This document shows positions 1 to 61,970 of a stretch of 64,000 nucleotides of DNA, one piece after another. Numbering within the stretch: position 1 is the stretch's first letter; each line of letters starts with the position of its first letter. The stretch is from Marsupella aquatica (Eukaryota > Plantae > Marchantiophyta). Under the pieces are notes generated by a model. It ran no database searches. It was not told the DNA's origin and saw only the letters and a program-made list of their open reading frames with translations. The stretch is from contig OZ316892.1 of NCBI GenBank assembly GCA_973895155.1, positions 3,103,223-3,167,222 on the forward strand. The letters run 5' to 3'. Both the position numbers and the translations under genes were made by a program.

Positions 1-376
1 AGAGGTAGTCTTCGCTAGGGTTGTGATTTAGACAACATCGCAAGTGTTGCGATGCGTTTCTCCTCGGAATTTTTGCGATACGTTCACCGTGGCTCTTTGA
101 GATGGGGGTTGGTTCCCAAAAGCTTCGCAAAATGTCTATTTCATGGGTTTTTGTGTATTTGGGTTAGGGTGAGGGAGACCATTCATGGGTTTTGAAGGAG
201 GGAGGAAAGTGATGTTGACCCAGTCTGCCGCAATTAAAATGGCATTACTGAAAAAGTACAAAAGTTACAAAATGGAAGGGTAAAAACCCTTAGGTAAAGC
301 GCCACGGCCATGCATGCTGATCGCTATACATGTGAACTCGATGTAAGTGCTCTAGCTACAACCTGTCTACATCGAG

Positions 377-2545
377 CTAGAAAGGAGTGTTCCTGCCCCT
401 CCTTGCCTTCTTCCCCTTGGCCTTCTCCTTGCCCTTGTGTGCTCTTGGGGGGGGTGCAACCTGGACTTCCTCCTCCTCTTGGTCACCCTCCTCCTCATCC
501 TCATCCTCATCCTCATCCCCACCTCCACCGCCCTGGCTTGCCGCGCTACCACCCCCAGCACCACTGGAACGTGCTGATGCAAATGACTGGTCTCCAGTGC
601 TAGTTGGCCTGGCTTGAGTAGCAGGAGCTGTGCTCCCCTCCCCTATCCCCTCCACATCCTCATCACTACTATCGGTGCCACCCTCGGTATGGGAGTCACC
701 ATCCTCCCCTCCCTGCTTCCATTAGCAAACCAGGGTGTCTGTTAGTCTCATATTCTTTACAAGTGTGAACAAAAGAGATATTCATTCAAAATTGCAATGA
801 ATGTAATAACCTAAAAATTCTCACCAATAATTCATCAACTTGCTGAAAGAGATGCTCCTTCCCATGTTTCTGGCCCACCTCCATCTCAGCCGCCGTAATC
901 TTCCTCTTGTACCTCTTGTACTAAGCCAAAACAAAACCAGCACAATTGGGTTAACACCAACCCATAACCCGATTCACATGGCTTCTAAAAATTAGGGGGT
1001 TTGTTGGGGCTGGTGGGGTGGTGCATCAAGGTTTTGGGGTTATGGAGGGTGGCATATATGGGGAAGACCCTCAAAGAACACTTAAACAATCGGAAAATTT
1101 AAAAATTCAAATTTTTGAAATTTTGCGAAGGCGCCAGCTTCGCAATCATAAGGACAATTACATTTGCGAAGCTGGTTGTGATGCGAACGTCTTCGCAATG
1201 CCTTCGCAAACATAAGCAAAAAAAGGGCATAATAAGGTTTGCGAAGGATTTGCGAAGCTACCCGCATCGCAAATGTATTGCAAACTCTGTCATGGCAAAA
1301 ACCCGAGAGGGAAGCAACTGTACGTGACCTAATCTGACACAACAAGTCTAATTGTAACTACTTGGTGGAAATGCAAGAAAGAGTTGGCTCATTGCAGGTG
1401 TGTTGGAATAGGAATTGGAGTAGCAAGAAGTCAAGGGAGGAGAGGGAGGTGCACTCACGAATGCTGCTTTGAGGCCGGGGAGGCCACCTTGACCCAGCCT
1501 GTGGGTGATGTTGGGCTTGTCTCGGACTCGCTCAGCTGCCTTCAGGAACTTGTTGGGTGGATCGCCTACTTCTGCTACAACCTGCTGGAGCTGGGCTACC
1601 TTCTGCTCCATCACCTTCAGGTCCCGGTCAGACTTCCCGGCCTCCTTTGCCCTTTGAGCCTTTGCCAGCTTCTCTGTGAAATCATTGAGGAGCCTGGCTG
1701 CTTTCAACTTCACCTCTGTTTGGTAGAAGGCCTGCCAGATATCTTTTGAGAATTGCAGCGGCCTCTGCAAATTCCTATACTCCTCCAAATCTCTAAGGTG
1801 AGACCTGATCTTCATTCTATCATGGTATCTAGCTTGTGACATGGAGTTTGAAATTTTGTCAGCAAGCCACTGTGAATCCATCTCTCCTCCATTTCGAAAT
1901 GCATCTTTCACCTGATTGATGACTCACTTTTGCTCTGCCTTTGAGCGAGTGCCCCACTCGACTCCTCTTGCAAAATTTGTGGATACAATGTGCCTGATTG
2001 TGCTCTTCGCCCCATTGTAAGCAAGCTCGGTGGGAATCCCCTCATCCTCTAAAGTAATCAGAGGCAGCTTCCTCCTTGCTACCTCCTTCTTTCTTTGCTC
2101 CTCCCTTTGTTTCCTGATCAGGTCTCTCTCATCTTTCCTCCTCTTCTTTTCCAATGCTTGAGGCGAGAGCACTCCAGCCTGAGCTCTCTCGTCCCTCTTT
2201 CGCTTCCTCTCAGCAGCCGCCTGCTCTGCTGCCTTCCTTGCATCCTCCTCCACTGCTGCTTGCCCTGCAGTGAGACCTGCTTGCAAGGCTTGGCCCAGAA
2301 GGGCACTCAATGATGCCAGCCCTGCTGGACTGGTGAAATCAATTTGACTCAACTGTGCAACCAAAAAATGCTCATCCACAATCGCCTTCAATCAATCCCC
2401 CCCCTCGGTTGCCTCCGTTGCTGCCAGAAGCTCCTCCATCACCACCAGTCCCCTCTCCGCTCGCCATCGCTCCGTCCTTGCCCTCGTTGCTCTCCTCAGG
2501 CCTGAATGAACTGAATCCGCCTTGTCCGCGCTCGGCAATCCATAA
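377..2545 (-). pseudogene. CACTA TnpA/ORF2-like (Ptta/En/Spm-type) spliced gene, disrupted
   Basis: ORFs 2392-2655, 1924-2391 and 1348-1911 share one frame, broken only by TGA codons. The motif HRLGQGGL resembles the H(H/R)LGxGGY motif of CACTA ORF2 proteins. Donor TTC|GTGAGT after 1459; in-phase exon 920-825 (YKRYKRKITAAEMEVGQKHGKEHLFQQVDELL); acidic/basic last exon ~738-377. Start codon position is uncertain. Confidence 0.65.
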
Positions 2546-3199
2546 GGATTCAAAATATTAGGCTTTGCGATTCGTTTCGCATCGCAGTTTGCGATGCATC
2601 GGCCTTCGCAAAAAGCTTCACAAATTCTATCTTTGCGAAGCTTCAAGATTCGCAAAAGCCTTCGCTATTTGGTTTTGCCATAACCCCCGTCTCGCATGCG
2701 TATTTGATGTGTTGTTAGGGATACTAAGGGGGCTTATGAACATTAAATGGGGTAGATGTAGAGGATTATGTTGCATTTTAATGGGATGTGATGAGATAAG
2801 GATTGGGGGGTTAGAAAATTGAAGGAGTTATATTGGAGGGTAAGAGGAGGGGGTTTGGCCTGGTTAGGGGAGGGTTTCTTTTGTGAAGGTTGGGCTTAGA
2901 TTGGCTTAGATACGAGGGGTTTTATGTTTTGGGTTTGCAGGGGGGTTTTATTTATGAAGGTTGGGGTTATATGTATTGGAGGGTAAGAGCTAGGAGGGGT
3001 TTTATGTTTTGGGTTTTGGGGTTTAGGCCAACTTAGGAGGGTTTGAAAGAGAGGTTTCAGTTTTATAGTATCTTGGGTTACTTTTATGGTATCTTAGGAG
3101 GGTAACCAAGAGGGGTGGCATATAATTATGGTAGAGAGAAGCATAGGATGGTTGAAGGGAATTGACCATTTAGGTTTTTGCTAACTTCATTGGCTTACG

Positions 3200-4250
3200 C
3201 TTTTAGAGTTCCCAAGGGTCTATGGTGGGTTTTTATTGCATGACACTCACCTTTCACTTGAAGCGGGATGAGGTTTTGGTTTTTATGCTAACAATTGAGG
3301 GAAATCCCATGTAATCATGATCCAGTGCAGGACCATCACTGCTTCCTCAACTTTTGTCTAATGCATATGCATTGTGGGAACCCGGACATCTAAAAGGTAT
3401 ATTTAAACATGTATGTTAGCAGGGTTTGATAAAGAGATTGTTCATAAACCTTGCCCTTCTTTGTTGTGCAAGAATATCTATATGCACATGTTTGGGGGTC
3501 TACAACTTGAGAGAAGCTAATGGCTATCCAAACTTACTTTTTTGTTTCCAGTATTTTCCTCGTGCTTCTAGATTCAGCTCATGTTCAATGCGCCACATGA
3601 CCTACAAGCACTATTGAGTCCGGATCTCATTCAGGTAATTATTGTCCAACTTCATTCTGGGCTTAGGCCTTTAGAGTTTTCCCAGGGGTCTAGGGTGGGT
3701 TTTTATTGCATGACACTCACCTTTCACTCGAGGGGGGATAAGGGTTTAGGGTTTAGGGTTTTATGCTAACAATTGAGGGGAAAACCCATGTAATCATGAT
3801 ACAACGCAGGGCCAACACTACTACCTCAACTTTTGTCTAATGCATATGCATTGTGGGAACCCGGGCATCTAAAAGGTATAACATCATGTATACAGTCAAT
3901 GTTGTTAGTACAGATTTTTATGCTTGCCCTTCTTTGTTGTGCCATGATATATGTGGGTAAATGTCTAAGATTCCACAACTTGACGGCTGCTAATTACCAT
4001 CCAAACTTACATTTTGTTTCCAGTATTTTCCTCCTACTTCTAGATTTGGCAAATGTTCCAAAAGCCACGTGACCTATAGGCACTGTTGAGCCCGGGGTCT
4101 CATTCAGGTAATAATCTAACCTCACTTAGGACATAGGGTATTACAATTTTCCCAAAGGTTATAATGTGGTTTCTTCTTGCATGACACTCACCTTAATTTG
4201 GGTTTCATGCTAACAAATATAAAAGGGTAATAAAACCCCATGTATAAACC
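3200..4250. repeat. Diverged ~470-480 bp tandem duplication (about 2.2 copies) in the intergenic region of the CACTA element
   Basis: GCATGACACTCACCTT recurs at ~3238, ~3708 and ~4179. CCTCAACTTTTGTCTAATGCATATGCATTGTGGGAACCCGG and TCTCATTCAGGTAAT each recur twice with ~470-480 bp spacing. Confidence 0.85.
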
Positions 4251-4317: not shown

Positions 4318-4575
4318 ATGCCCTACATGCAATGTAATGTGGCAGTGGATATGTCCTCTTCCTCTGAACTATCCAGTAGTGAGTACTCCTCCTATGATTA
4401 TAGACCCCCTCCTCCTCAGCCCGAGGTTACCGGTCCTCGTGGTCCACCCCGAAGACTTTGTGACTGCACCAGATGTGTGGGCCAAATTTCTCAAAAATCT
4501 TATGTGTGTGCTCAACATATCGAGAGATATGGACGTCATTGAGGTCTTACTCCCGGGGCTTCTTCATCCCATATG
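4318..4575 (+). pseudogene. First exon of the CACTA transposase gene (transposase-associated Cys/His domain, PF13963-like)
   Basis: RRLCDCTRCVGQISQKSYVCAQHIERYG fits the CxCxxC...H...G pattern. One in-frame TGA at 4540. Phase-0 donor ATG|GTAAGT at 4575/4576. Confidence 0.7.
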
Positions 4576-4985
4576 GTAAGTTTGTTTCAATTGATTGCCG
4601 TTCTTTACTGTTATTTTTAGAGGTGAATCAATGTTTACACATATGATTTACACATTTGGTTGTTTGTGGGTGTTTGCATGGAATAGCAGTATGCGTAGAT
4701 TGGTGACACCACCACCCTATGTCCCATCACAAGGAGTTTTAGATGCTATAGGCAATGCACTTTCACAAGCCTTGGGTTTGGGAATTAGTACCAGTCATGG
4801 GACAGAAGGGGAACACCCTCATGTGCCCACTGAGACACGAAGACCCCGGTCCAAGCCCCAATCCAACAGGAGGCCACGAGCACCCAATGACCCATCTAGA
4901 ACACTAGTTCGGTAGGTGGGGTGTTTGTTCATTCACTGGCAAGTGTGCCTCTATCATCAAGGATTGGGAACCTATCACTCTTGGC

Positions 4986-5510
4986 TTGCCTTATTTTACA
5001 GATTTTGATGAGGAGATTGTGGTTTGGGGTAGACGTTGGATTGTGAAAACTTCCACACTTGGAGAGAGACATGGATATGGAGTATTTGCTTGTGAGGATA
5101 TCATCATGGATGAGGAGGGTGAGTCAAATGTTCATGGTAGAGAGGGTCCTACTTTGTTCCCATACGGTGGACCCATCTACAAGAGAAGACATTGGAACAT
5201 GATCCTTGCACAACATCCTGAGTGGAAAACATATGCTCTAGAGATGGATACTTTTGATGGTAGCACTAGAAGGTATAGTGAGCAGCGGGTGATAGACGGT
5301 GATCCCATACGTAATGGGAATATTGCTGGTTTCATAAATAGTACTGTGGGGACTCGGCCCAAGCGTAGGGCCAATTGTGAGTGGGTTTTTACTGATAGTC
5401 CAATGCCGACACCATATGGCACGACATATCATAAGGACCATTGCTTAGTTCTTGCTACTAGGACCATTAGAGCAGGAGATGAGTTATTCACACACTATGA
5501 GTGGGATTAG
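4986..5510 (+). CDS. SET-domain (lysine methyltransferase-like) ORF carried inside the CACTA element
   Basis: SET motifs in canonical order: HGYGVFACEDI (GxG/motif I), FPYGG (YxG/motif II), GNIAGFINST...ANC (motif III-like, NHS replaced by NST) and LATRTIRAGDELFTHY (motif IV, ELxxxY). The frame is open from 4908. The ORF lacks an ATG at its 5' end, so it is probably a spliced terminal exon. Confidence 0.88.
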   Translation: MPYFTDFDEEIVVWGRRWIVKTSTLGERHGYGVFACEDIIMDEEGESNVHGREGPTLFPYGGPIYKRRHWNMILAQHPEWKTYALEMDTFDGSTRRYSEQRVIDGDPIRNGNIAGFINSTVGTRPKRRANCEWVFTDSPMPTPYGTTYHKDHCLVLATRTIRAGDELFTHYEWD

Positions 5511-5723
5511 GAAATCATGTCCTTTATCCTCTTGCATCTATTTTGGACTTCCCATTTACTATTATATATATATGGCCTTTGGGCTCATTTTGGAGTAATA
5601 AGGTTTTAGCCCATGCATTTACTTTAATTCTTAATGTCTTGAATGAATGGTGTTAAGTCTATTTTAATTTGTTGTACTTGGTCAAATATACATGAGGAGG
5701 TTTTTTGGTTGTAATGTGCATAG

Positions 5724-8700
5724 AATACGCAACCATCTCAACAAATGTTACCACAAAGGTTGAGAGCAACATATCGGGAGATGGGTATGCCAGAAGAGGG
5801 AGAACCATCAGAGGGTGATTCCTCATCAAGTAATGATGTAGGTGGTGCTGATGAGGAAGCCGCACCTCGGACTGATGACCAGGTCATGCATGATCAAGAT
5901 AGAGCCATGGATGACTTCATGGTTGATTGGTTTGGTGTCGATGTTGAGGATGATGTGCCTCACATTGGTCATGAGGTTGGCCCTTCAAATGACCCACGGC
6001 CACAACATACTCCAGAGGGACAACAACAATGGAAAGAGGCAGAGGAACATGCTCGAACACCTATTTTTGAGGGTGCTCGGTTGAGCCATCTTTCTGCCAT
6101 ATTGGGGCTCTTGAACATTCAAGCCAAACACAAGACAAGCAATTCTATGTTATCAGACATATTTGAATATTGTCATGACTTGATGTTACCCTCGGAGAAT
6201 GTGTTGCCAGGGACTTGGAAGGATGCAAAGAAGGTTCTCTCATCCATTGGCATAGATTACCATATTATTCATGCCTGTGTGAATAATTGCATGTTATTTC
6301 ACGGGGATACAGCCCATATCACAGAATGCACAATGTGTCATGAGCCACGGTATGAGCCAAACATGCTAACCCAGAAGGTACCAAGGAAAGCAGTTCGTTG
6401 GTTCCCCATAATTCCTCGCTTGTTGCACATGTATAGATGTTCTGACTTGGCCGAGTTGATGGTATGGCACAAGAAACATCGTTCGGAGCCCGGTGTCATG
6501 TGATTACCAGTTGACTCTCCTGCTCATAAACATGTGGAATCAACATGGCCAGATTTTGAGCGTGACCCTCGGCATGTGCGACTGGGGTTGGCATCAGATG
6601 GAGTTAGCCCTCATTCACTTGGAGGGAAGGGGAGACCTACATCGGTCTGGCGTGTGGTTCTCATGAATTACAACCTTCCACCATGATTGTCCATGAAAAA
6701 GGGTTTTTTGTTGCTATCTTTGATTATCCCAGGGCCAAAGAAGGTGAAGAACATGGACACCTATTTGACATTACTGGTTCAGGAACTCCAGAAATTATGG
6801 GAAGGAGTATGGGCATATGATGGTCGAAAGACTACAGGGGGTACCCCACGGGTTTTCAAACTCAAAGGGGTTTGTATGTGGACCATGCATGACTACCCAG
6901 GTAAGAACTTTGTTGTTTAAATGCATCATATTCTAATGCATGGTATCCCCTCATTTCCATCATGTGCTAATCCTAACATAATGTGTGTTTATATGACCAG
7001 GATTTGGCTTTGTGAGTGGGTTGCAAACCCAAGGCTACAAGGCTTGCTCCACTTGTGGCCCAAGCCTTGGTGACGTAGCCAAGTATTCATCACATCTTCG
7101 CAAGATTGTTTATCTTGGGCATACAAAGTTTCTTCCAATGGGACATCAGATGAGGCATGACCCACTACTATTTTCCTCTATTGATATGCCCTTGCGAGCG
7201 TGATGTACCTGAGCCAACAACTTTTACACACTGGAAAGACATGGCTGCAAGAGTGGCAGACCCAGAGGATCCCATGCAATTTGACGGTAGTGGCTTGACA
7301 AGGTGGAGTATATTAACCACTTTTCCCTATTGGGGTGAGTTGAAGATCCGCCATCTATTAGACCCCATGCACATTGAGGGAAATGTGGGAAAGGCTTTGA
7401 TAAAGGCTTTCTATGGAGAGAAAGACACTAACTTCAGGGAGGCTTGTGAGGATCTTGAGATGCATCCAGACGTGTGGGTCATAAGTGATCCTATCACAGG
7501 GATCGAGCATCGACCTTCAACTCCATGGGTGCTTCCTATTGGCCAGAGAAGGGAGTTTCGGAATCGCATAGGAGACATGCGGTTTCTTACTGGTTATGGT
7601 GCCAATCTCCGAAAGGCCTTTGGGATGGAGGACAATCATAAGTGGCCAAGGTATCTCAAGACACATGACTACCATAGGTTATTGCAGCACATATTGACTG
7701 TGGCCATAATAGGTTTGGCAAGTGAAGAAGTGCAAGATGCCCTTTGGTCATTGGGAAAACTATTGAGATGGGTATGCTCTAAGGAGATATATACTGATGA
7801 GATCCCTGGGATGGAGGTTTTGGCAGCAGAGGTGGTATGCAAGTTGGAGAAGGCCCTTCTTCCTTCCTTTTTTGACTGTCAAGTGCATTTACTTGTTCAT
7901 CTTGTTCATGAGGTGACCATTGCAGGTCCTGTGCATTGTCGGTGGATGTATTGGCTAGAACGATACATGGCAGTGTTAAAAGGTTATGTACGTAACCGTG
8001 CACGGGTTGAGGGAAGCATGGCTACAGGATACTTAGCAGCTGAGAGTATGTTCTATTGTAGTAACATATTGGCCACAATTGATTGTACCTCTCCCCGTAC
8101 TTGGGTAGAGGAGAGGGAAGATGAAGAGGATCGTTTAACAGGTGCTAGGAAAACTCGCATGTTGACACCAGTGGAGGTGAAACAACTGACCACATTCATG
8201 TTGAGTAACAACACTATCATGGAAGAATGGAGGGATTTCTATGAGGATGCCAAAAGTAACAGCACAAGACCAAGGATTTTTCCAAAGTACCTTGACTATA
8301 TGAAGGAGAAGTTAGTTGAGGTGGATGACATGGTGGTCAGGGGAGAGTGTATTACATTTTCCGGCTATCACAGATGATGTTCGTACCATTGTTCATGGTC
8401 CCTTGAGAGTGGTTACAACAAGGACAGCAATGTGGACACAAGGAAGATATTTCAGGTGATCTCCATCTACCTTAGTAACCTTTGATTTGAATCACTTGGT
8501 TTAATTTAATTCATTTGTAATACAAGCACGTATATTGAAGAGGCAGATTCTTGGTGTGTTCAATTAATTGGAATATGTTTGTGTATATTTTTGTGTAACA
8601 TATCCTTATGGTTTGATGGATTTTAGGATTTCTTCCCTTGATGAGAAGAGGGGTCGTACCTTTGATTGTGGAGTTCAAGGACAATTCTCTCAAGATTCCC

Positions 8701-9114
8701 GCAACAGTCGCCATGACACAAATATTATTCGAGATGTTGTGCCACATTATGGAAAGGTAGAAGAGATTCTAGTGATATCTTATGATGCACAGTCAAAGTT
8801 TGAAGAGTATGTCTTCAAGTGCAAGTGGTTCAAAGTGAACCTTGCAGGTAACAATCCTATTGTGGTTCAAGATGAGTGTGGATTTACACAACTGAAGACG
8901 TCTGCCACTAGTTTCCAGCCATCTCATTGGCAAACATCAGAGCCGTTCACTTTTCCAAGTCATGTGGAACAATGTTTCTATATTCCATACCCCCCCAAAC
9001 CCAGAGGAATGGTCACTTGTCATCACATATGTGCCACGGTCTCGTTCAATCGTTGGGGAAAAGCCTGATATTCTGGTTGTGTCCCAACCTGAAGATGATG
9101 AGGACCAAGTTTGA
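5724..9114 (+). pseudogene. CACTA TnpD-type transposase (Transposase_21 + DUF4218 + DUF4216), disrupted
   Basis: Motifs IHACVNNCMLF, WFPIIPRL, RHVRLGLASDG, NYNLPP, LSLIIPGPK, WTMHDYPG, HLLDPMHIEGNV, LKTHDYHRLLQ, GPVHCRWMYWLERYMAVLKGYVRNRARVEGS and YGKVEEI...FKCKWF. Acceptor at 5723; introns 6901-7000 and ~8456-8626. Stops at 6501 and ~6684; frameshifts near 7170, 8360 and 8995. Confidence 0.95.
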
Positions 9115-10558
9115 GGGGTCTGTGTTTGTGGATATATAGCTACACGGATATATAGTTAGATTTGATGATATGAAGAATTCTCTTCTCGGTAGAATGGAGA
9201 AATATGTGCTTCTCAATTATCAATAAACTTATGTTTTGTAAGTATATCATTTTCAAATGTTGTTTTCTATATCTCCCATCCCTACCCCACACTCACCACA
9301 CCTTTTGGTAGACTTTATGCAAAGAAAACTCATGTTGCTTGTAGTCCTCTATCCTCCATGCTTTCCTAATCCCCCCCTAGCCGTTCTCCTTATTACTTGT
9401 ACCCACCTCCCTCCTCCTTTCTTTCATTGTCTGTCCCTCTTATTAAACCCTCCTTCCTCCTTCCTCCCCTTGTCCCAACCCCTTTCTATTTCAACCCTAT
9501 ACTTTCCTTACTTTCCACCCCTGTCCCCCACTCTTACCTATACAACCTAGCTTCTCTTCTCCCTCCTAAACCTATACCCTTAAACCTCCCTCATTTCCTT
9601 GTCCCTCTCTAAACCAATACCCTCCCTCCTTTACTTGTCCCTCTCTAAACCCTAAACTCCCTCCTTTTTATTTTCACTCCCTAAATCCAAACCCTCTCTA
9701 AAACTATATCTACATACCCTTCCTCCTCCCTCATTTCCTTGTGCCCCTAAACCTGTATCCTCCCTCTTGGATCCCTCCATTCCTTGTCCCTCCTAGCCCC
9801 ATTCCCTTCCTCCTCCTTTTCATTGTCCCTCCCTAAAAATTACATGTATCCACCCTCCTTTACCCTCCCTCCCCAATCCCATTCCTTTTCCACCTCTTTG
9901 AAGCGTTCATAATATTTTGCGAAACATCTTGCGAAACCCCTACACCCGCAAACTCATCGCTACATTTGCGATACTTAACTGCTCGCTAACTGCCATCATA
10001 AACTCATCACAAACTTCCGAAGATACCACCATCTCAAAGTTGCGAAACCAAAACATTCACAAAATGAGACCCTAGACAGGCACAGGATTTGCGAGCCTAT
10101 TACTATCGCAAGTTAGCCATTTCCTAAACATCGCTCATTTGCGAGACAAGAAGACTCGCAAAATATTTTGAGATGCTAGAATATTCGCAACTATTTAGTT
10201 TTCCGGCGCATCTCAATGAATTTGCGAAGCGGTAAAGATTGCTAAATCGTTCAATGATAATTACTTCGGAAATTTTTTGCGATAAGTGAAGTGTCGTAAA
10301 ATGTTGCGATCGTCTAAGTTTCGCAATTACGTGTTGCGATGTGGGTAGATTCGCTAAGTGCGATGCGTATCGTATCGCAAGTTTAGCGATGAGATTAATC
10401 TTGCAAAGCTTTCTTCCTCTTGTAAAACGCCTTCGCAAAATTGGCAAATATGTAGTAGTGTGAACATAAAGAATCTATTATGTTCACAAAGGTTTTTGTC
10501 CTCACCTCTATGTGTGTCACCTCTATGGGTACTCAGGCTAGTCTCTCTAGTTTCTCAT

Positions 10559-10911
10559 TGTTAGGATTTACTCTTAGGTCTAGAGTCATGACTGTACCGT
10601 AGTTAAGGCTAACCTTAGTTGCAGATTTGGTTAGGTTAGTCATGCTGTGCACACTCTATAACCAAGCGGTGTTTGCTTAGTTGGAGAGTGCAAACTCAAG
10701 GCTGCTCATTGTTACAGAGCTAGTTGAGAGATAGAGAGAGCTTGCGCTATGGATGCTTGGTATGGCCGGTTGGCCTAGAGTGCAATAAAGCTTGTGTGTG
10801 TTCCCGTGGACGTAGCCTCATGTGGAGGTGAACCACGTATCTCTCTGTGTCGACTCTTGCGCGTTGGATGGTTGATGGGCTTGCGGTTGCGATTGTTGTC
10901 TATGCTCAACA
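10559..10911 (+). mobile_element. Solo LTR (353 bp) with perfect 5-bp TSD
   Basis: TGTTAG...TCAACA termini flanked on both sides by CTCAT (10554-10558 and 10912-10916). Contains TATAA and AATAAA-like signals and the plant-LTR motif CCCGTGGACGTAG...GAACCACGTA. Confidence 0.92.
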
Positions 10912-33414: not shown

Positions 33415-35838
33415 CTCGCAAGCTGAATGTACATTCTCCACATGAGATTCGTCACACTGCCCACAAATCTGACAGTGACCACCTCCTCAATTGTGCCTCT
33501 AAATCCTTGCCTAAGATGGTTCGAAGGGCACACTCCCACCCACCTTCGCAACCACCTAAATTGGAACATGGAGCCCATGCCTGCAGACCTCTCTGTATTC
33601 TCCTATTCCAATTCGAGAAAACTTGACCACAACTGCATCTATTGCAACCATGACGAGGTGCCACGCTTGTGAGTGCCCATCCTCAGCTCATCATCCCCGC
33701 CCTTGCGCTCATGCCACGACATTCTTTCACGGCATGGTGCCAACTCCACCAGGAGGAGGAATTGACTGCCATCCTGGGGAGGGGAAATCATTGGCATCGC
33801 ATGGAGCCAATTCCACAAGGAGAGGAATTGACTGCCATCCTGGTGAGGGGAAGACGTAGAACCTAAGTACATATCACTGACTCGCTGCTAACTTGAGACG
33901 AGAGTGGTAATTTAGAAGTGTTTAACAAACTGTTGTAAGTTAGGGTCGGTCGCCACGTTGCCCCCCAAGACAAAAGAGCCTGATTTCATTGTTAGGCGAT
34001 GCACATTGTCTGAACGAATGACCTACATGTCAGTAACTATATTCAGGCACTCGCGTTGTTTCGTGCATTTTTAAGAAATTCATGAACTCAAGAGTCACAA
34101 AAGGTATCACTTCCCCTCTCTAGTCATCTCTATGATGCTCACTGCCAGCAATTTCTTTTTATTTTTCCTGTTGAGTCCTTCATGACCCTACGGATTTTTC
34201 AACAATCCTTTGTACTGACCCGTCCAACGTGTGCAGGTCATGATTTATATGCCCTGTGTGTCGATCTATAGGTGACTCACACGGAGGCCCTAGGATTCAT
34301 GAATTTTTTGCTTTGTAAGAAATTTTGATTTGTGACCATGGACAGCATGCTTACTAGCTTTTTCACCAAGTCTTTCAGATATCCAAACCAATGAAACTGC
34401 AAGATTCACATTCTGACAAAATACTCAGTCCTTGTCAGTGATGGTAAATCACCTAGAGTCAAGGTTTGAGAATACTGGTACAACCCATGTTCCAAGATTG
34501 GTAGGCACATCACTCCTGACAAGGCTTGCTGAAACGTGGACCCTCGTTTGTTATTTATGATGCACAATGTATGTATGTCCTTTTCATTTGGACATTTTGT
34601 GGCAGTTTCCCATGTCATTTCCACGATTGAGCTACATCGCTCTCTCTAAGTTTCGTCTTAATATTTGGTATAAAGTTGTCCATTCATAATGTCCGTCCGT
34701 GGCATGTGCTGAACCCCACCTTCGATCCTTGATGAAGATGCAATCAGACATTCACTTCCGGATAAGTGACAACAACAACTTATCCTTTGAGTAGAAAATG
34801 CGTCTTGGAGCCTGTCACAATCCGATCAAGCGAATAGGTTATTACACGTCTGAAAAGGGTAGGCTTCCTGGAAAGTGATGTCGCTGCCCCATTTGGAAAA
34901 GTCGAGGTTGCAGAGTTGTGTATAATTAACGCCCCCGTCGGTGAATTGGCCATTCAACGCAAAGCGAGCGTTGATCCGGTAGAAAGCCTCAGTGAAATGA
35001 ATGCCGTCCCAGCATATGTGCTGCTCTGGGTTGGAGCACTTGTTCGATCCCAGAGATGGGTTCCCGCATGTGATAGCCGGATTGTAGTTCAAAGTCCCCA
35101 CTCCAGGAGCTCCACAGCAAGCCGTCTTGGTTAGGGCAGGGTCGAAACCTGTCATGCAAGGGCAGACAGGAGGGCACGAGATTAATTCTGTAACGGTGGG
35201 TAATGCTCTGCTGTTTTCACCATCCGCGTCTATGAGCACATCTTAGTGACGAGTATATGAAACTCTGGTGAATGATTGAATCTTACTCATATGTGAGAGA
35301 ATCCTTCAAAGGCTCCGAAAAGGAGTTTCCGTACTGAAGCCAAGCCAAAACGCTTTCTCGAGCGGTTTCTATTAAACCCAAAAATTGGTACCTTAAATCA
35401 CTTATAAGATTTCTTCTTTGTTTTTTCCAGACCTGATCTGACAGATTTGTGTGGTTTGTTATGAAAGCATTGGTAAGATTAGAAAGTGAAAATGTCAAAG
35501 TTATTGTTCTTCAAATTAATGTTTCGCTTTCCTTAATGTCACTGCTAGGGGAAAAATCAAGGTTTGTAAAACTCTAGAGTGGTTTAAAATTAATATATAG
35601 CACCATCCTCACATGGCGTTATTATACAGTTGGGAAAGATATGACAAATTGGGAGAAAAAGGAGGAAACTCAAAGTACCGTATTTGGCAGGGTGTGTCAG
35701 AATCTCAAGTTGGGCGCTGTAGGTATCAAAGTAGGCGATGTTGGCTCCAGTTAGATTAAGGCGTAGCAACTTGATCTGCGACAACAGTTGATTGTTAAAG
35801 TTCTGTGAAATTTGGTTCACACCGGTGATGCAGCCCAA
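33415..35838 (+). repeat. Segmental duplication unit (3' part of GDSL gene 1 plus downstream region), direct copy at ~52318-54720
   Basis: Collinear, high similarity over ~2.4 kb, also visible as paired near-identical ORF translations (e.g. 35283-35498 vs 54141-54395). Confidence 0.92.
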
Positions 35839-37981
35839 TGAGTCCGTAGGATGGTTGGCGTTTCTCAGGTAAGTGAGGATGAAAGTCGAACAGCCGCCCA
35901 CGGACAGGCCGGATATTAGAAACTGCCGTGCGCCCCTCTGGTACAAAGTCTGCAATTCAAGTGCATCGCCAAGTCATAGAGCATTTTGAACAAAGTTGGA
36001 CTGTGAAAGAACACTCCGAGTTTGGAAGATCTGTCATACTGGTGAAGCAACACTAAAGTGAGATTAATTACCAGCATACTTCTCGCCAGAAAATTCGAAG
36101 ATATCGGACTAGTTTGTTCAAGACTGCCATTAGAGATGTGAATAAGGGAAGGATTAAAATGAAAGATTACTTTGGGATTTCCGAACTGACCTGCCCCAAT
36201 TTGCTACTGTGAAAAACCAACCTTCGTTTTGGACTGGGCTGGTACCGAACTTGAGGAAAAATGAATAAAACGAATCTGTTCCCGATCGAGTTCTCTGACT
36301 AGTTTTTGTATCGATACTGACTAGAAGGGTTTTCTAACAATTTGAATAGATCAGCCTTGTGTGAAAGTCAGACGAAGATTGATCAATGCAATGCGGAAAC
36401 TTGATAATAGCCTGTTTATCGTCTGTTTGTCCAACGTTACCTGTGTGGATACTCTGACTTATCGACACAAGTACCTCATAATTGATATACTTACAACGAT
36501 TGCAATCATGATCGCATTGACCGTCTGCGGAACAATGGTATCGTTGACGAAGCTGAAAGATGTACCATTTTCAACGGGACGATATATGTCATTACTGCCA
36601 GCGTTGATAGTATACAGCCAACTACACCACGGGTTGTCCAGCGTTGGCAATTCCTGATTAAAATTACGGCAGCCTGCAATGACAATGTACCCAGATAGAA
36701 ATTTTGAGTAAGCCTTCTGGTATAATTTGAACCTCTAGATCAGATGTTGGCCGACGCAGTAAAAGCTGGTTCTGTCTGAGGGAGATCACTCAACTGCGTT
36801 CTAAGTCTCCCTTTTATCCCTAGATCTCATCTTTTTCTACTATTCAGATCGAACCTGATTGGTGACGGGAGGTCGAGCTAAAACAGAAGCTAATTAATGT
36901 TTCGGAAAGCTCTTTTTCCACGGATTACAAGTGACACAATGGTCCAATGAGTGCTAACTGAGCAGACAGTTTTCGATGGCTTTCAGGCCGGACCACAGAC
37001 TAATGAAACTAGCATCATTCAAATCTACCGTCAAGGACGTATAGATAAACGATAGCCTCTCTATCATTGTCTTTGTCATCAAGAATATTCATGGTTTGTG
37101 TTTTGAAAGAATGATCTGGTGGCTCAGACAAATTACAGAAAAAGACATCTGAGATGCAAAGAAATAAGCCGCATGGAAATTTGAATTCAAATGTCAGGAA
37201 ACTCGGAAGGATCCCGCAGGATTGTTTGATCCCTCACCTGCTTGCTTTTGAGAAGCGGCCACGCTGTTCTGGAACCTGATGAATTGAGCCGTCTGGAAAG
37301 GTGTCACGGAGAATGGCGTAACTGCTGCCGGGTTGAAAGCCGCAGTGGCTCCAGAGGTTGCGAAATTGATTCCATTTCTGAAATTGAATGAAGTGACTGA
37401 AAAGTACGCGTCCAGTAGCGGCTTCTGGAAAGCTAGAGCTGTTCACCCGAACAAATAAATTGAAAGAAGATTTTCAGTAGACCCTCGAATTTGAAAAAAT
37501 TCACCAAACTCAAACGAGCTAGGATGATCAGATTGTTCACAAAGATTTGTGAGCTCGCTCTGTCCGAAGCTAAATGAAATTGTGACATTTTTCTTCAAAC
37601 AAACTGCCCTTGCCTTAGTGGATCCCCAATTTCTGTGCTCAGAATGAATGCCTACAGTTCTAAAAACTCGAGGTAATTAAGAAAAGACGAATTATGTCCT
37701 GAGAACGCACAGAAGAAGTCGGGCAGGACGCGCCCATTGCAGAAACGTTTTGCAGGCTTGCCAAAGAATGTCTCGCCGTAGGGAGGTTTTTCTAAATCCG
37801 CTAAGAAAGGGAACGAATCTACCAAATTGCCCGTGTCGGTAACGGAGTCTCCAAAGTTGGCAAAACCTGAAGGGCACAACGGATTCAAATCACTCTTAGC
37901 ATGGATTGAAGTCATAGCTTTCGGCATTACGGTACTGAGAAATAAAAGGACACTGAATGCTCGAAATTGCTCGAGAGACAT
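34826..37981 (-). CDS. GDSL esterase/lipase (SGNH), secreted, 5 exons; copy 1
   Basis: Signal-peptide-like N-terminus; FANFGDSVTDTGN, PPYGETFFGKPAKRFCNGR, NFATSG, LYTINAGSND, LYQRGARQFL, ACCG and CWDGIHFTEA. Exons ~37981-37711, 37438-37238, ~36780-36494, ~35950-35679 and ~35150-34826. Confidence 0.93.
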
Positions 37982-39935
37982 GGCGCTCAGATATCGAGGT
38001 AGCTTGAAGCTTGGGTGGATGTAGGACTTCCTACCAAGCTATAAAAGATTCAAGCCACAAGAGTTATTTTCTCATTCAAGTTTATGACATTTAAAGCGTT
38101 TGAACGAAGCAATTTGCTCAGACAAAACCTAAAAGTATCTGCTAGAGCATAATACATAATAAAAAATACTTGGTAAGACTCGCACGCGTCTGTCGACGGG
38201 ACCGGCGGCCCGGACCTGTATGACTTCGATTGTAGCCTGAATGACCTTTCTCGCACATTGTCAGCATTTCTCTCACATTGTCAGCATTTGCTTTCTCTAC
38301 CTCCGTGACTCTCGCACCTTTTGCTTTGAACTCAGACTCACCTTTCTACCTGTAAATCCTTGTTTCCTTGCTTGTATCTCGTGCCCTGCCTTTTTGTTGG
38401 ATTCTGGCCAATACCCAATGTAGAAATGATGAGGGACGGCATAGAAAACTCTTGATAAACATATAAAAGTCCATGTAATCACAGTGTACTCGCTTGGGAC
38501 CCACGTCCAACGTTTTACCCGTCCGTGAGTCGAATGCACCTTGGTCACGCAGGGCATATCTGTAATGAGGAGCCCTCCGGGTCGTAGATTCAACGAAAGG
38601 ATTGTACCAAAAAAGGGCAACAAAGGACACAAAACAATGGCGTGCAAACGTTGCCGCCGTGTGTTCTTCTGTTAATTGTTTCTCATTTTTTGTCATTGCC
38701 TTACACTATTGTACCAGTAGGAATTATTGCAGCAGTAGGGATTGAAAAGTTAGAAATGTAGTTTAATGTTAGAATTATTTTTGGGGTAGGTGCTCAAAAA
38801 GTTAAAAATGTACTTCAATTTTTCTCAATGTGTGAATTATTTTTTGGATCATGCTGGTGACTCATGTAAAGTTTTTTTTACGGCTAGTCTCTCAATTCTG
38901 CCCTTTAGCCTGCCCTCACCTGCCCAAGATAAAAACTTAATTGCAAAATAATTAAATTGATTTAAATTAAAAATTAAAAAATGGGAAAAAGAATCTTGAA
39001 AATTTTAGTTTTGAATATGAATAAAATATATTGTATTTTTTTGGTCAATAGGTTGTGCTTGGATTCTAAGATGCAATGTACAGATGTTATTTTGTGTCTC
39101 CAATTTCTATGTGTAAGACACAAGTTAGTGAAATCAATTATCACAACAACTATATTACAGGGATCACATATAACATGCCCAACAATTACATTGCAAATCT
39201 TACATTAATGTTTTTGCTTCACCTTGACATATTTTTCTTGTCTAAGTGACAACTTTTTTTAATGTTTACATTGATTTCTCCTCAACAACTTTATCTTGCT
39301 TTGACACCTTTAATTTTCTCATCTTGCCATTTTTTTTCACATTGACATCTTTGTTTCATCACCCCATTTTTTCTCAGCCTCTACATCTAGCTTTCCTCAC
39401 TTTGCTTGACATCCTTTTTCTCACCTGAAAATCTTTATCTCACTACACCATCTTTCCTTCACCCTCAACATCTTTCTCTCCTTAATATTTTCCCCTCATT
39501 TTGGGATCTTTTTTTCACCTTGCCATGTTTTCTCTCTGGGTTGACATTTTTTTCTCACTTCAATCATCTTATTTCTTCACCTTGACATCTTTTTTTCTCA
39601 TCTACATTTTCTTTCACTTCGACATCTTTTCCTTACATAACAACAATGTTTGGCATGCACCCAAAACCTGATCTTGTGCGCATCACACATCTTGAGCTCG
39701 TTTTATTATACTGTAAAGATAGAAGTGTACATAGTTACACTTGGCCATTGATGCTTGAGCTCCATCATTCTCCCTAATATAAACTTGCCCTAAACTAGTC
39801 CACTTCCCATACAAGTCCGTTTTGGCATGCCTTGGGTATGACTAGTAGTAAGCAAGGTATCATTTGGCCATGGGTGAAGATGCAATTATTATACACTAAC
39901 TTCTAAAATAGTGATGGCAGGAACTTGAGCACTAC

Positions 39936-40268
39936 TTGGGCATCTCAAATATGAAAAAAAAAACCATCTCACGGGTGGCCCGCGATGTGCTCAGACGCAC
40001 CAAAATTGGGTACAGCCGGGCCTGGATCTTTTCAGGCAATCAAGTTTGAGGGGGGTTGTGGCACTGTGTGTGAATGACAACCTGAGCCAATGACTACTCT
40101 TAAATTAGGACCTCTTTCCCTGGGCCGTCTGTATCAGTCATGACCTCCAGGCGTGACTGCTCGGGCCTCACATTTGGCGCCCGACCAGTCCTTCCCGCTG
40201 CCCCGGCCCACAACACTCCTGGGCGGGCGTGGTCACGAGTGAAAATTGACCTTAGTTGAGACACCCTA
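39936..40268. mobile_element. MITE-like insertion just 3' of the GDSL copy 2 stop codon
   Basis: Imperfect TIRs TTGGGCATCTCAA / TTGAGACACCCTA around a GC-rich core. Sequence at ~39750-39925 is homologous to the GDSL1 3' region (~34630-34780), which lacks this block. No TSD seen. Confidence 0.5.
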
Positions 40269-40281
40269 GTGGAGATGACCA

Positions 40282-43200
40282 TCAAGCGAACAGGTTAGTA
40301 CAGGTCTGGGAAGGGTAGGCCTCCTGAAAAGTGACATTGGTGCCCCACTGAGAAAAGTCGAGGTCGCAGATTTGGGTATAGTTAACACCACCGTCCGTGT
40401 ACTGGCCATTCAACTCAAAGCGGGCCATGATCCTGTAGAAAGCCTCTGTGAAATGAATGCCGTCCCACACTAAGTACTGGTCTGGGTTGGAGCACTTGTT
40501 CGATCCCAGAGATGGGTGCCCACATGGGATTGCCGGATTGTAATTCAGACTCCCCGCTCCAGGAGCTCCACAGCAAGCCGTCCTCGTCAGGGCAGGGTCA
40601 AAACCTGTTATGCAAGGGCACGAGATTAAGATTCTGTCACGATCGGTAAGGTCTGCTGTCTTCTCCATGCGCGTGACCTGTGAGTTAGCACATCTTGGTA
40701 ACAGGTATCTGAAATTCTGCTGACTGATGGAAACCTACTCATATGTGAGAATACTTCACCGTTCGCGTGCCCTGTGAGCACATCTTAGTAACTAGTATGT
40801 GAAACTCTGCTGACTGATGGAAAACCACTCATATGTGAGAATCAAGAGCTTAAGTAGCAAACGAAGGGAGCCGAAACGCTTGAGGCTCTATCAAACATAG
40901 AATTGGCACCCTCAATCAGTTATAAGATCTTTGTGTTTTTTATGAGGACGATTGATAAGATAAGCAAGTGAAAATGCCACTATCATTGATAGTGATTTTA
41001 GGTCAACTATTGACCAGGTCATTTATCGACTGGGAACCCTGGAAAGACATGAAACAGCGGAAGAAAATCACGAAGGAACTCAAAAATACCATAGGTGGCA
41101 GGGTGTTTTCGAATCTCAATGCTGGCGCTGTAGGTGTCAAAGTAGGCGATGTTGGATCCAGTTAGATTCTGACGTAGCTGCTTGATCTGCGAGAACAGTT
41201 GATTGTTGAAGTTCTCAGTAATGCTGTTCACATCGGCGATGCAGCCCAATGAGTCCGTCGTATAGTTACTCAGATACGTGAGGACGACAGTCGAACACCC
41301 GCCCGGCGAAAGGCCGGAGATCAGAAAGTGCCGTGCGCCCCTCTGATACAGAGTCTGCAATTCAAGTACATCACCAAGTCAGAGAGCACATTGGACAGAG
41401 TTGCTTCATTCAATGATTTTCGGGGTTTGGAAGGCTCTGTCCGAGGTATTGGTTTACTTCTCGTGGATTGAAACAATTACAAGGTGGGTACATTAGTGTG
41501 GCCACGACTGCCATGGGCCATCGGAAACAGGGGATTGGGCCATTGGAAACAGGGGACGGATAAAACCCCAGGATTGCTTCATGAGTTTTAAGGCTTCTAT
41601 TTCAATACTGAGTGACCAGACTGTTAACGATCTAGTCGAAGACGCGTTTACTAACAATTTGAATATTTCATAGATGAGCCACGGAGTGTGAAAGTCAGAC
41701 CAAATTGGTCAATAAAAAGCGGAAAAGGGATAGCTAGCAACACACACTGTGGGCCCGCCCCCAGCAAACAATTCTGACGTTTTCGTCTATCAAGTGTTGC
41801 CCTTCAATTTTGCACATTCAACGAATGTCCCATTCTACATTTTGTACATCTAGTTGATGTCCAATAATGCATATACTTACAATGATTGCAGTCACGACGG
41901 CATTGACCGCTTTGGGTACAACGGTATTGTTGACGAAGCTGAAAGATGTACCAGTTTCAATGGGAGGTAAAATGTCATTACCGCCAGTCTTGATAGTATA
42001 CAGCCAACCAGACCACGGATTCTGAAGCGCTGGTAATTCCACATTGAAATTAATGCAGCCTGCGATGACATTGTACCCAGATAGAACGAGTAAGCCTTCG
42101 AGGTTGTTGAGCCTCTAGATGAGGATGTTGGCCCACACAGTACGCGCTTGTTTCTGTTCAATCTCTTCAGAGGCCGGGCTTAGTTACTGGACTGCGACAT
42201 TTCTCTTTTATCCCAAGACTTCAGAATCTCCACATCGACATCAGGAAGTTATCCAGAAGATAAATGTCTAGGAAACTTATTTCCCACGGACTGCGTACTA
42301 GTGCAGCGATGCAATCACTACGTGACTGACTAAACAATCTTTGATGGTTTTCAGGCCGGGCCACGAATATTTACTAGCATCTTTGAAATCTAGCTCTTAG
42401 GCTAAGGACGTATACCTACAGACGATAGGTTTCATACATTTCTCGCTAAATTATTAGAATAATCATGATTTTATTTTGAAATTTTGAACTGGTAGAGCTC
42501 TATGAGATTTGACCTCGCAGATATGGACATCTACTGCAAGAAATAATTTAGTTGCATGAAAATCTGAATTCAAATAGAAAGTTGTTATGATTCCGCACCT
42601 CCTTGCTGTTCAGTAGCGGCCACGCTGTTCTGGAACCTGATGAATTGGGCTGTCTGGAAAGGTGTCAACGCGAACGGAGTCGCTGCTATCGGGCTGACAG
42701 CCGCATTTGATCCCGCACTTGCGAAGTTTACGCCATATCTGAAATCGAATGAAGTGACGGAAAAGTACGCGTCCAGTAGTGGCTTCCGAAAAGCTAGAGC
42801 TGTTTCACGAGAACAAATAAATGAAAAGGAGGGCTTTAGCTGCACAGCAGAATGGAACAATTTCGCGAATTGACCGAACTGAGGTCTTCGCCAAAGCTTT
42901 GAAACAAAGCTAAGATGCTGTTGTCCTCGGAGAATGATTTGTAAGCTGCAACTGTCCGAAACTAGTAAAGTGAAATTGGGACCTCGATCTTTCTCTAGAA
43001 AAACTCGACACTACTGCACTACAATGTCTGTGCTCAGAATTAATGCCTACAGGTCTAGGAACTCAAGGTAATAAAGAAAGAAAGGATTATATCCTGGAAT
43101 ACAAGCTCACAGAAGAAGTCGGGCACGAGGCGCCCGTTGCAGAAACGTTTCGCAGGCTTGCCGAAGAACTTTTCGCCGTAGGGAGGATTCTCAGGATCCG

Positions 43201-43378
43201 TAAAGAAAGGGAACGCATCTAGCAAATTGCCCGTGTCGGTGAAGGAGTCTCCAAAGTTGGCAAAACCTGAGGGGCAAAACGGATTCCAATCATCTGTAGC
43301 ACTCACTGAAGTCATAGCTATAGGCATTACTGCGCCGAGTACCATAATGATACCAAAGGCTCGAATTGCTAGAGACAT
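40282..43378 (-). CDS. GDSL esterase/lipase (SGNH), secreted, 5 exons; copy 2
   Basis: FANFGDSFTDTGN, PPYGEKFFGKPAKRFCNGRLVPDF, YGVNFASAGS, LYTIKTGGND, LYQRGARHFL and VWDGIHFTEA. Same intron positions as copy 1. Confidence 0.93.
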
Positions 43379-45446
43379 GGCGCTCAGCCACTTCGGCAAT
43401 TTGAAACTGTGGCGGGTTTAGGACTTGCTATGGAGCGTAGCAGTAACAAGTTTCAAAGACAGCAAAAGTTGCTTTCTCAATCTCGCTGATTGGAAAAGAG
43501 TCGAAGCAATTGGCATCAGACCAACGAAAGCTGTCGAGGGCATAAGCCTGAATTTGCTATCTGTCCTGGCTAATGGTAGAAATACGTCGTATCTGATTGT
43601 CTCGCGCGCCTCTTTTAAAGACTCTTTGACGACTGAAGGGCCCGACGAACTGAGCTACATGACTTCTTGACTGGCCTTGCAAACAAGTCACTCGAAGAAA
43701 AAAGCTAAAACTTTCTGTCACTAAACTCTTGCTGGCACCTCCTGCTGGCATCACCAGCTTCTATATCTGACTCTGATTCTCCTCGTATCCAATGTAGTCA
43801 GAAAGTACTTCCGTGATGCTCTCACCTTCTAATTTGAACTCAGACGTTGTACGTGTCTCGTGCCCTGTCGTTTAGCTCCATGCCGGCCACTAAGCAATGT
43901 AGAAGTTATGATATAAAAGACGCTCTTAGAATCCATGCAATCATAGTAGTGTTCTCGCTCTGAAGGAGTTCACAAGCTCACGTCCCACCACCTCCGGGTT
44001 TGACTCGTATGTTAGTCTGCCTCTCGGTCATGGCATCGTGTTTATGAGAAGCCCACCGGGTCTTCAGGTCACTCATTCAGTGTCGATGAAGATAAAAGAA
44101 CGCGGAGAAGAAACTCACTAATAAAGCGCCAACATCTTAGAACAAGGAACGGGGGAAAATTGACACAAAATAAAAATCAACTAGACGTATAAACTACCAA
44201 TATAAATTGGACCTCAAATTAAGAGCATTGATGATCATTCTGGGGATGAATCCCTGCTTGTTACTTTGCTATCTCTTGGCTTCGCTGCTTTAGAGAGTGG
44301 CCCTTTAGGATTCTGTCAATACTGCCTTTGTTTGACATAAGATTTTTCTTGCCTGCCTGGCCAGGACCTTTCTCTGGATCGGGCTGGTGGCTTTTTGGTT
44401 ACGGTCTTCCCTCTCTGGTGGAAGTTGTGCCTTACTGTTTCCATGGATTCTGTCCTGCTTGTTTCCCGTGAGTGGGGCTTTCGGGTTTTATGATACTATA
44501 AAACACATTTGAAAACAATTCCAAGGAAGAGCATTGATGATTTCCATTCAATAAGTCACTAAAGTTTGCCACTTTGGTACATACTATTGCCTGGGATTCT
44601 GGGAACCACTCCTCAAGTGAAATGAATTCATCCAGTACGTGACAGCAGAGCACTCCGCATGTGAAGTTAATTTCATCCAGTTGCAGCATGTCAGGTAGTA
44701 CAGTAGGCTACTTGTTCTGTAGTTGGGTGCCTAATTGTCAGTCTTGTGCGTAGGCAATTGGCTTTCATTAGGAATAGATCGAAAATCTGGAAGTGTAGGA
44801 TAGCGTTATGAATCGTTGGCACGAACCCAAGTCCTGCCGAGATCCGCACTGCAAAGAAGGTAAAGAGCAAAGCCTTGCACCTGACGACAAAGGCGATTGA
44901 GGATAGAATTCTGGCAGGCTAGGAATCCGCGATCCAGGCAAGCGGAACTGTGGGTCGAACCTCGCGAATTGTTCTCAAAAGAAACCTGTTTGTTTGGAAG
45001 CTCTCCGAAGCACCTACCATGTCTGACAACTTGATTTCATGTTACGAATGTGGTGCTGAATCATTAGCTTCTGAAATATTTCTTTCACTGACGAGAAGCC
45101 GCACGGAATAATGATTGATGCTAGCTTTGCCGCTCAGCTGCAAGGCATCTGGCAATGGACGCGATAGCAGGCATGGAAGCAGTTCGCACTTTTTCTCAGT
45201 TCAGAACCTCACACGCGAGGAAGAAGCCCGCCGAGGAGTTATATCTTTTTGGTGTGGATGAAGAAGCTATGTTCGCCATCATGCAAGACCAACCACCCCG
45301 CCAATCGATGGAGCACAAGGTAGTTCTGGCAATGGCGCAGAGACAGAGGCCGTGCTCGTTCTGTCGGGCAGCATCCTGATGTCTGTCACAAAGGCAGCGA
45401 TCCCTTCCACTAAGTCAAAACAGCCCGTTCGAAGGGGTTGAAGACT

Positions 45447-61454: not shown

Positions 61455-61970
61455 TAAGGCAATAAACTATAGTACACACATATGCAAAGGTAGGTGTAAT
61501 GTTTGACCCTAATTGTAACTTCAAAATCAATATAAGGTTACAAGTTAAGACATTCTGATACACACATCCGCAAAGGTCGGTGTATTGTTCGACCCCAATT
61601 GTAACTTCAAAATCAATATATATTACAAGTTAATGCATCCTGGTACACACATCTGCAAGGGTCGGTGTATTGTTTGACCTCAGTTGTAACTTATAAAATC
61701 AATATAAGGTAACTACAAGTTAAGACATTATGGTATACACATCTACAAGGGTTAGTGTACTACTTGATTCTAGTTGTAACTTCAAAATCAAAATAAGGTT
61801 ATCTGGGAAGGTTAGAAGTCAAGGCATTTGGTACAAGGGTCGATATAATATTTGACCCCATTTGTAACTTCAAAATCAATAACTAAGGTCATAAGTTAAG
61901 GCAATTGTTACATATATTCAAGGGTTTGAGTATTGTTTGACAAGTTGTAACCTAAAAACAAGGTTATAAT
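61455..61970. repeat. Tandem array, ~85-95 bp unit, about 6 copies
   Basis: TACACACATC..CAA.GGT..GTGTATTGTTTGACCC.A.TTGTAACTTCAAAATCAATATAAGGTTACAAGTTAAG repeated at ~61473, 61560, 61644, 61735, ~61832 and ~61908. Confidence 0.9.

Follow-up and report, generated by a model that had tools for sequence, protein, structure and literature searches.

Genes encoding SET domains have been described as cargo in several groups of transposons. They occur in the HarbingerS and MuDR families of Phytophthora (cited in PMC12730594), and proto-Helentron-Pi carries one in the form of a separate, intronless ORF of 153 aa with 50% similarity to Clr4 (PMC4067079). Within the EnSpm/CACTA superfamily, the accessory gene PAG2 of the red-algal Plavaka elements holds a SET domain (bioRxiv 10.1101/2025.02.11.637652): in these elements of 17-19 kb, a conserved PF00856 gene described as a putative chromatin modulator belongs to a three-gene cassette, and its SET domain is fused to an N6-adenine methylase. 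The accessible sections of these sources describe no functional test of the transposon-borne SETs of oomycetes and red algae (bioRxiv 10.1101/2025.02.11.637652, PMC12730594, PMC4067079). Plant transposons also encode regulators of other kinds. In the Spm/CACTA elements of flowering plants, TnpA is an accessory product that is alternatively spliced with the transposase in some families, as reported for Arabidopsis Spm3; it belongs to the HTH DNA-binding proteins, recruits host demethylases, seems to be restricted to flowering plants and, in Arabidopsis Spm1, binds clustered CCVTCGCAAA sites (bioRxiv 10.64898/2026.08.24.746577). VANC, the regulator encoded by VANDAL elements of the Mutator superfamily, lacks a SET domain and has a demonstrated anti-silencing activity, and its short motifs are clustered in the non-coding parts of the elements (PMC5735166).

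We analysed a stretch of 64,000 nt from the liverwort Marsupella aquatica, referred to below as the window. Sequence comparisons indicate that a SET-type gene is a conserved part of a cut-and-paste CACTA family of peat mosses and liverworts; the SET block of the window lies within a CACTA element that is a decayed copy of this bryophyte family (Table 1). The right end of the element reads CACTACTAC on the minus strand at position 10460. The left terminus, CACTACAAC, was reached in four of the 14 loci checked (L004, L035, L006 and L037), where three different flanks point to three independent insertions starting with CACTAC. Both element ends together were found in none of these 14 loci, and the left end of the window's copy lies outside the window. 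The transposase is of the TnpD type: the Transposase_21 profile was matched with 57.4 and 51.9 bits (cut-off 28.6) and DUF4218 with 116 bits, above its cut-off, and DUF4216 scored 26.5 bits, below its cut-off of 30.6. The exon starting at 7001 contains CSTC and HQMRH, which correspond to the C(2)C and H(3-4)H motifs of CACTA/EnSpm transposases (PMC12730594). The SET block lies 213 nt upstream of the transposase. The two share their orientation, as an earlier sequence-only reading of this locus had stated.

Table 1. Features of the CACTA copy in the Marsupella aquatica window (strand "." where none applies)
Feature	Position	Strand	Remarks
End of left subterminal TCGCAA cluster	38..130	.	4 copies; left position recurs in related loci
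Internal TCGCAA cluster	1123..1272	.	8 copies, in accessory-gene non-coding DNA; position recurs in related loci
Divergent accessory gene, main exon	1348..2391	-	Helical; stop at 1924-1926 in this copy
TCGCAA cluster upstream of accessory gene	2565..2655	.	5 copies; position recurs in related loci
Unit of ~470 bp	3207..4216	+	Two to three repeats between the two divergent genes
Exon 1	4351..4575	+	Ser/acidic N-terminus and CxCxxC-x13-H finger; donor ATG|GTAAG at end
Intron 1	4576..4686	+	Acceptor AATAG matching related loci
Exon 2, 5' part	4687..4910	+	Conserved PPPYVPSQG-helix segment, Pro/Arg linker
Exon 2, 3' part	4911..5510	+	Conserved segment of ~50 aa, SET domain with inserts; TAG stop at 5508
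AT-rich spacer	5511..5723	+	Likely SET 3' UTR and remainder of long intron
Transposase exon, Transposase_21	5724..6900	+	No conserved start of its own; CATAG|AAT acceptor, phase 0
Transposase exon, C(2)C and H(3)H motifs, DUF4218	7001..8455	+	
Last transposase exon	8627..9114	+	DUF4216 below cut-off; end approximate
Right subterminal TCGCAA cluster	9917..10438	.	16 copies, both orientations
Right terminal inverted repeat CACTACTACATA	10449..10460	-	Left terminus beyond window

All named relatives of the SET protein were bryophytes, namely four species of Sphagnum, Calypogeia fissa and Riccia sorocarpa. A protein search gave 61 relatives out of 73 candidates, the named ones belonging to the four Sphagnum species and C. 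fissa, and a search for longer forms gave four relatives out of 196 candidates and added R. sorocarpa. Annotated SET copies were present on at least five contigs of C. fissa. A scan of metagenomes yielded 39 loci from 110 pattern matches, with the same gene order as in the window; these loci were picked via SET, so that members of the family without SET could not appear among them. The window's subfamily shares only 75-80% DNA identity with Sphagnum-type loci. The transposase was found directly downstream of SET in 25 of the 28 metagenome loci that extend 300 nt or more beyond it; upstream of SET, we found the finger exon in 14 of 18 loci with at least 600 nt of sequence, and 7 of 11 loci with at least 2500 nt showed the divergent accessory gene. 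All seven misses for the transposase (three) and the finger exon (four) were copies whose SET match was itself cut short. The relatives from the protein search and the 39 metagenome loci rule out that SET is confined to this copy. Taken together, the comparisons indicate that SET is a fixed component of the family and not a one-off capture.

Relative to Plavaka, this family has its SET domain behind a Cys/His finger, inside a Transposase_21-type locus of land plants, and SET likely shares the first exon of the transposase, the SETs of the two systems being set apart here by description. In the full-length relatives we found SET alone, with no PAG2-type N6-adenine methylase and no PAG1-3 cassette. 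SET cargo is common to HarbingerS, MuDR, proto-Helentron-Pi and this family, the first three being of other superfamilies and from other hosts than the last; unlike the Helentron SET, the SET of this family matched none of the solved SETs significantly in sequence searches of the PDB. Our search of the literature outside Repbase Reports and the bioRxiv supplements (Plavaka tables and the survey of 962 Spm proteins), which may hold the family, returned no SET gene in a land-plant CACTA element, and the accessible sections of PMC11982613, PMC13317346 and PMC5451076 contain nothing bearing on SET in CACTA. Transposon-borne SET genes are already known as a kind, and the sequence-only reading, which took SET for an unusual CACTA cargo, overstated the novelty, given the SET genes reported from HarbingerS, from MuDR of oomycetes, from Helentrons and from the Plavaka elements of red algae. 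What is new is the TnpD-type host element of land plants, a distinct His-less SET family and a likely shared first exon.

The frame 4908-5510 on the plus strand comprises 200 aa from stop to stop, and its first Met is residue 67, past motif I. The annotated C. fissa relatives (including P0062 and P0068) are 351-359 aa long and match three blocks of the window in three frames: 4351-4575, 4688-4910 (the linker) and the SET block. This three-block match to full-length annotated relatives rules out a stand-alone minimal SET ORF and indicates that the SET gene is about 350 aa long and composed of a Cys/His finger exon, a linker and SET. The frame had been described as minimal, compact and without introns; it has no start codon before motif I, an intron parts exon 1 from the linker, and 4908-5510 is the end of exon 2. 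That reading missed both the exon structure and the breaks of this copy. The finger residues of exon 1 are the Cys at 4459, 4465 and 4474 and the His at 4516. In this copy, a TGA at 4540 cuts exon 1 short, and a deletion of 2 bp at 4910 puts the linker and the SET block out of frame; two additional letters follow 4910 in contigs of all four of four read sets. Because of this TGA and this deletion, the copy is dead. In addition, 5 nt appear to be missing right after the intron 1 acceptor; protein and locus comparison are the basis for this loss and for the state of the 4540 stop in copies that are nearly identical. The transposase of this copy has stops at 6501 and 6684 and frameshifts near 7190, 8340 and 8990, and the accessory gene is interrupted by a stop as well (Table 1).

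Splice sites around the SET block are well conserved. All 13 loci examined have a GT donor at the end of exon 1, and 12 of 13 have AATAG|G as the acceptor of the linker; the acceptor of the transposase exon reads CATAG|AAT in 16 of 16 loci and in the window. All these sites are in phase 0. Blastn similarity between the window and related loci ends at 5512 and resumes at 5717; the CATAG acceptor has thus been kept at the end of a spacer that is otherwise unconserved. The SET exon ends in its own conserved stop. This arrangement is read most simply with the SET exon as an alternative terminal exon within intron 1 of the transposase gene. The conserved phase-0 sites suggest that finger exon 1 would be spliced either to the SET exon or, skipping it, to the transposase exon. 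The Cys/His spacing of exon 1 is reminiscent of the transposase-associated domain PF13963, and exon 1 of the usual N-terminal finger of CACTA transposases; it gave no match to the PF13963 profile at E <= 10 and no usable match in the Atlas. No full-length annotated transposase, in which the exon 1 start could be checked, was present among 1251 candidates. In the annotation of Sphagnum jensenii, the gene model P0063 links the finger to a shortened SET and to the beginning of the transposase. This model shows the adjacency of finger, SET and transposase in a named genome, and the fusion itself is probably a mis-spliced prediction.

The identification of a SET domain was upheld: the window's SET scored 29.1-29.9 bits against PF00856 (E 1.4e-6 at 29.1 bits; cut-off 22.4), which is a modest score. 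The profile was matched at E <= 0.1 by 44 of 46 aligned rows, several intact relatives falling just under the cut-off (P0008 and P0062, both with 21.7 bits). The four SET motifs follow one another as first reported (GYG at 5073-5081, YGG from 5163, the Asn of FINST at 5337 and ELFTHY ending at 5498), and the absence of flanking Cys clusters was equally confirmed. Among the aligned rows, the first and second Gly of GYG (GxG) are kept in 39 and 40 of 41, and the Tyr and Gly of YxG in 44 of 45 and 45 of 45; both are recognized SET motifs (PMC7412744). The motif-III Asn and a second Asn are each present in 46 of 46 rows. The cofactor-binding motif NHxC (PMC4146578, PMC7412744) was not found in the family: its His is present in 0 of 46 rows (Ser in 40), and the Cys at the fourth position is absent from all 46. 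The FINST that had been noticed in place of FINHS is therefore a family trait, and decay of this copy is ruled out as its cause. ELxxxY, the terminal SET pattern, is also conserved (Glu 43/43, Tyr 43/44). Two positions ahead of the terminal Tyr stands a small residue (Thr in 36 rows, Cys in five and Ser in three), which would allow multiple methylation under the Phe/Tyr-switch rule. The role of the terminal Tyr is treated in a legend of PMC4067079.

The residues of the catalytic site (Asn, YxG Tyr and terminal Tyr) are near invariant among relatives down to 39% identity, and from this conservation we consider the enzyme probably active. It is unlikely, though deserving of some weight, that SET is catalytically dead or weak and serves as a reader, decoy or scaffold that would, for instance, bind the methylated tails of histones or titrate silencing complexes of the host. 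This possibility is favoured by the loss of the NHxC His and Cys from 46 of 46 rows and by PR domains and SUVH9, which are discussed as non-catalytic modules (PMC4146578); a pure scaffold, however, need not keep the three catalytic-site residues nearly invariant. The PR/SET domains of PRDM proteins are instructive as SET-like domains without the NHxC consensus, some members of which are active. Indeed, NHxC is important for activity, yet active PR domains without it exist and several that lack many SET catalytic residues are reported as active; the PR domain of FOG1 does not bind AdoHcy, which has been linked to the loss of the NHxC Asn and Cys (PMC4146578). The present family differs in having no match to the PR-specific Pfam model and no C2H2 array. 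Regarding the fold, two AlphaFold2 models reached pLDDT values of 38.9 and 36.8, too low for use, and the Atlas model of P0062 (pLDDT 0.50) aligned only to SET proteins of mixed classes, with TM 0.52-0.63 to those outside the family. Its next structural neighbour in the ESM Atlas (TM 0.74) was a second cluster from Streptophyta (343 aa, 126 members, SET 56%), which was also the top Atlas row for the finger exon and may be a sister family.

Our best reading is that the element encodes a lysine methyltransferase that likely favours expression of the element. Alternative splicing would yield a finger-linker-SET protein from the exon 1 shared with the transposase; this protein would methylate lysines, most likely of histones at the element's own copies, and the methylation would help to keep these copies expressed and mobile. 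Targeting could plausibly occur through the shared finger or through a partner that binds the TCGCAA clusters. We place the entire statement, from the spliced protein to chromatin lysine methylation at own copies that favours expression, just short of an even chance, and we hold tentatively, with less than even confidence, that overall the enzyme acts on chromatin and to the element's benefit. In a wider and somewhat unlikely version, the slot that belongs to the alternatively spliced regulator TnpA in flowering plants would be held in bryophyte CACTA elements by an active, His-less SET of a family of its own, which would have its first exon in common with the transposase and would place a histone mark on the element's own copies; the transposon family may also have crossed between mosses and liverworts. 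The likeness to TnpA is that of an accessory product spliced alternatively with the transposase; the likely alternative product of this family is a candidate enzyme.

If the methyltransferase is active, its target may differ from the one proposed. It is rather unlikely that it acts on a non-histone protein such as the transposase, the accessory protein or host silencing factors. Neither the PDB sequence searches nor the Atlas structure neighbours, which are mixed (TM 0.52-0.63), revealed affinity to any single class of host histone methyltransferases, and a plant SET-type enzyme is known to methylate Rubisco (PMC7412744), both of which agree with such a target; other transposon-borne SETs, however, are described, by homology only, as histone methyltransferases (PMC12730594, PMC4067079). 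We regard it as quite improbable that the enzyme writes a repressive histone mark, thereby curbing its own element or silencing neighbours and competitors. PRC2 represses Marchantia transposons including DNA transposons (bioRxiv 10.1101/2022.10.24.513474), and EZH2 provided the best PDB rows, which were not significant (E 0.95-1.8), but the characterised plant transposon regulators VANC and TnpA activate their own elements (PMC5735166, bioRxiv 10.64898/2026.08.24.746577).

An activating SET writer, if true, would counter silencing by a chromatin mark of its own, whereas VANC and TnpA act via the loss of DNA methylation. The presence of the family in land plants, its purifying selection and its intact-looking annotated copies (P0062 and P0068) make transposon self-marking directly testable, and Marchantia and Physcomitrium are transformable models close to the genera bearing the family. 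If true, a small SET that lacks the His and comes with a targeting exon of its own would also widen SET enzymology. Finally, transposon SET genes inflate the counts of SET genes in bryophyte annotations.

The main product could alternatively be a fusion of finger, SET and transposase, produced via a weak donor just past the terminal Tyr codon. Such a protein would resemble SETMAR, and its splicing could use the GT at 5501 and the AGs at 5758 and 5764, all in phase 2, which occur both in the window and in L001. However, the donor GTGGGA is far off the consensus, a Trp that 43 of 44 rows share would be dropped, the conserved stop and the CATAG acceptor would be bypassed, and the longer-form search yielded one fusion, P0063, which looks mis-spliced and has its SET truncated. 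A main product of this kind is very improbable, and we retain the SET exon as a putative alternative terminal exon.

Selection was estimated with Nei-Gojobori dN/dS on 15 of the 39 loci, those whose SET match is in frame and nearly full. Comparing the window with each locus gave SET values of 0.24-0.30 in 15 of 15 cases, and dN/dS relative to the majority sequence of 14 loci was 0.25 (95% bootstrap 0.15-0.41) for SET and 0.18 (0.10-0.30) for the SET core. The transposase segments gave 0.10-0.15, about half the SET value, the finger exon gave 0.07 over 46 codons, and the accessory gene, which shows 63-73% identity in related loci, gave 0.14-0.17. The copies compared with their own majority presented a dN/dS of 0.84, the near-neutral decay expected after insertion, and stops were found within the SET block of five of the 15 loci. 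The values between subfamilies, far under 1, indicate that SET has been maintained by purifying selection and rule out its neutral evolution between subfamilies; together with the linkage to the transposase in 25 of 28 loci, they bear out the prediction that SET would be conserved at the same position with dN/dS below 1. These patterns indicate that SET was kept up in the lineages that continued to transpose, although under looser constraint than the transposase. A passive and recent capture of part of a host gene that is now decaying, with which the broken state of this copy and the stops in five of the 15 loci would agree, is barely tenable and largely refuted by the selection test, given the same position of SET in diverged subfamilies, a dN/dS far below 1 and no host-type SET among the matches of the protein and longer-form searches. 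The PDB likewise gave no host-type SET; for the recent capture of a host exon, all these searches are weak tests. The CpG observed/expected ratio is 0.27-0.35 in the element versus 0.59 in the rest of the window (0.44 in one host ORF), and this depletion suggests that the copies were probably methylated despite their SET cargo, which speaks against an effective protection.

The element contains 35 TCGCAA sites between 1 and 10460, of which 33 are non-coding and two coding, and they form four clusters that include subterminal ones. In the whole window, 56 sites were observed versus 21.8 +/- 4.8 expected. The motif reads TCGCAAA at 21 of the 35 sites of the element, which is the core of the Spm1 site bound by TnpA. 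As with VANC, short motifs are clustered in non-coding parts of the element, and the likeness is known here from the motif clusters only. These clusters provide circumstantial support for a self-targeting system, and they may also be plain sites of a transposition factor. The accessory ORF matched no convincing family in Pfam and NCBIfam, and Pfam profiles detected no TnpA family in the element; the accessory protein is a candidate TCGCAA-binding factor. Further exons of the accessory gene likely lie near 820-922 and 377-721. The tandem units between the divergent genes vary by subfamily, with ~470 bp here and a motif that recurs at intervals of ~190 bp in another locus (L033, 2432-2901).

The origin of this SET was also searched for outside plants. 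No relative was confirmed among 82 and 23 pattern matches in viral contigs, among 54 in prokaryote genomes or in phage records, by a method that finds close relatives only. Atlas features list a giant-virus SET cluster (0.96), which is a lead only. In a tree of 25 rows, from which partial matches were left out, the window belonged to no well-supported small clade, so that the tree gives no support for a direction of transfer. The SETs of Calypogeia and Sphagnum share 73-77% identity among named sequences, and dS between the window and the loci is unsaturated (0.6 for SET and 0.9-1.3 for the transposase). These values make a crossing between mosses and liverworts possible, and the family may have spread horizontally between them, which we treat as a lead only. 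The dS relative to Sphagnum-type loci was lower for the SET block (4911-5507; 0.61, 0.43-0.86) than for the transposase (5724-9000; 0.91-1.30) and the accessory gene (1.15-1.31). This lower value could reflect the exchange of modules between subfamilies or a constraint on silent sites.

Several additional features were observed in the window outside the element. A high-depth repeat just past the right terminus (10560-10911) is probably another mobile element and represents the insertion context. Host genes include a Myb-domain gene and GDSL lipases, the latter in a tandemly duplicated cluster (33416-43482 and 49560-54723) with flanking repeats in common. An inverted duplicate with 96% identity (51188-51729 and 58895-59436) contains an open frame of ~200 codons that belongs to no Pfam family. 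Finally, a degenerate tandem array with units of roughly 85 bp occupies positions 61450-61958.
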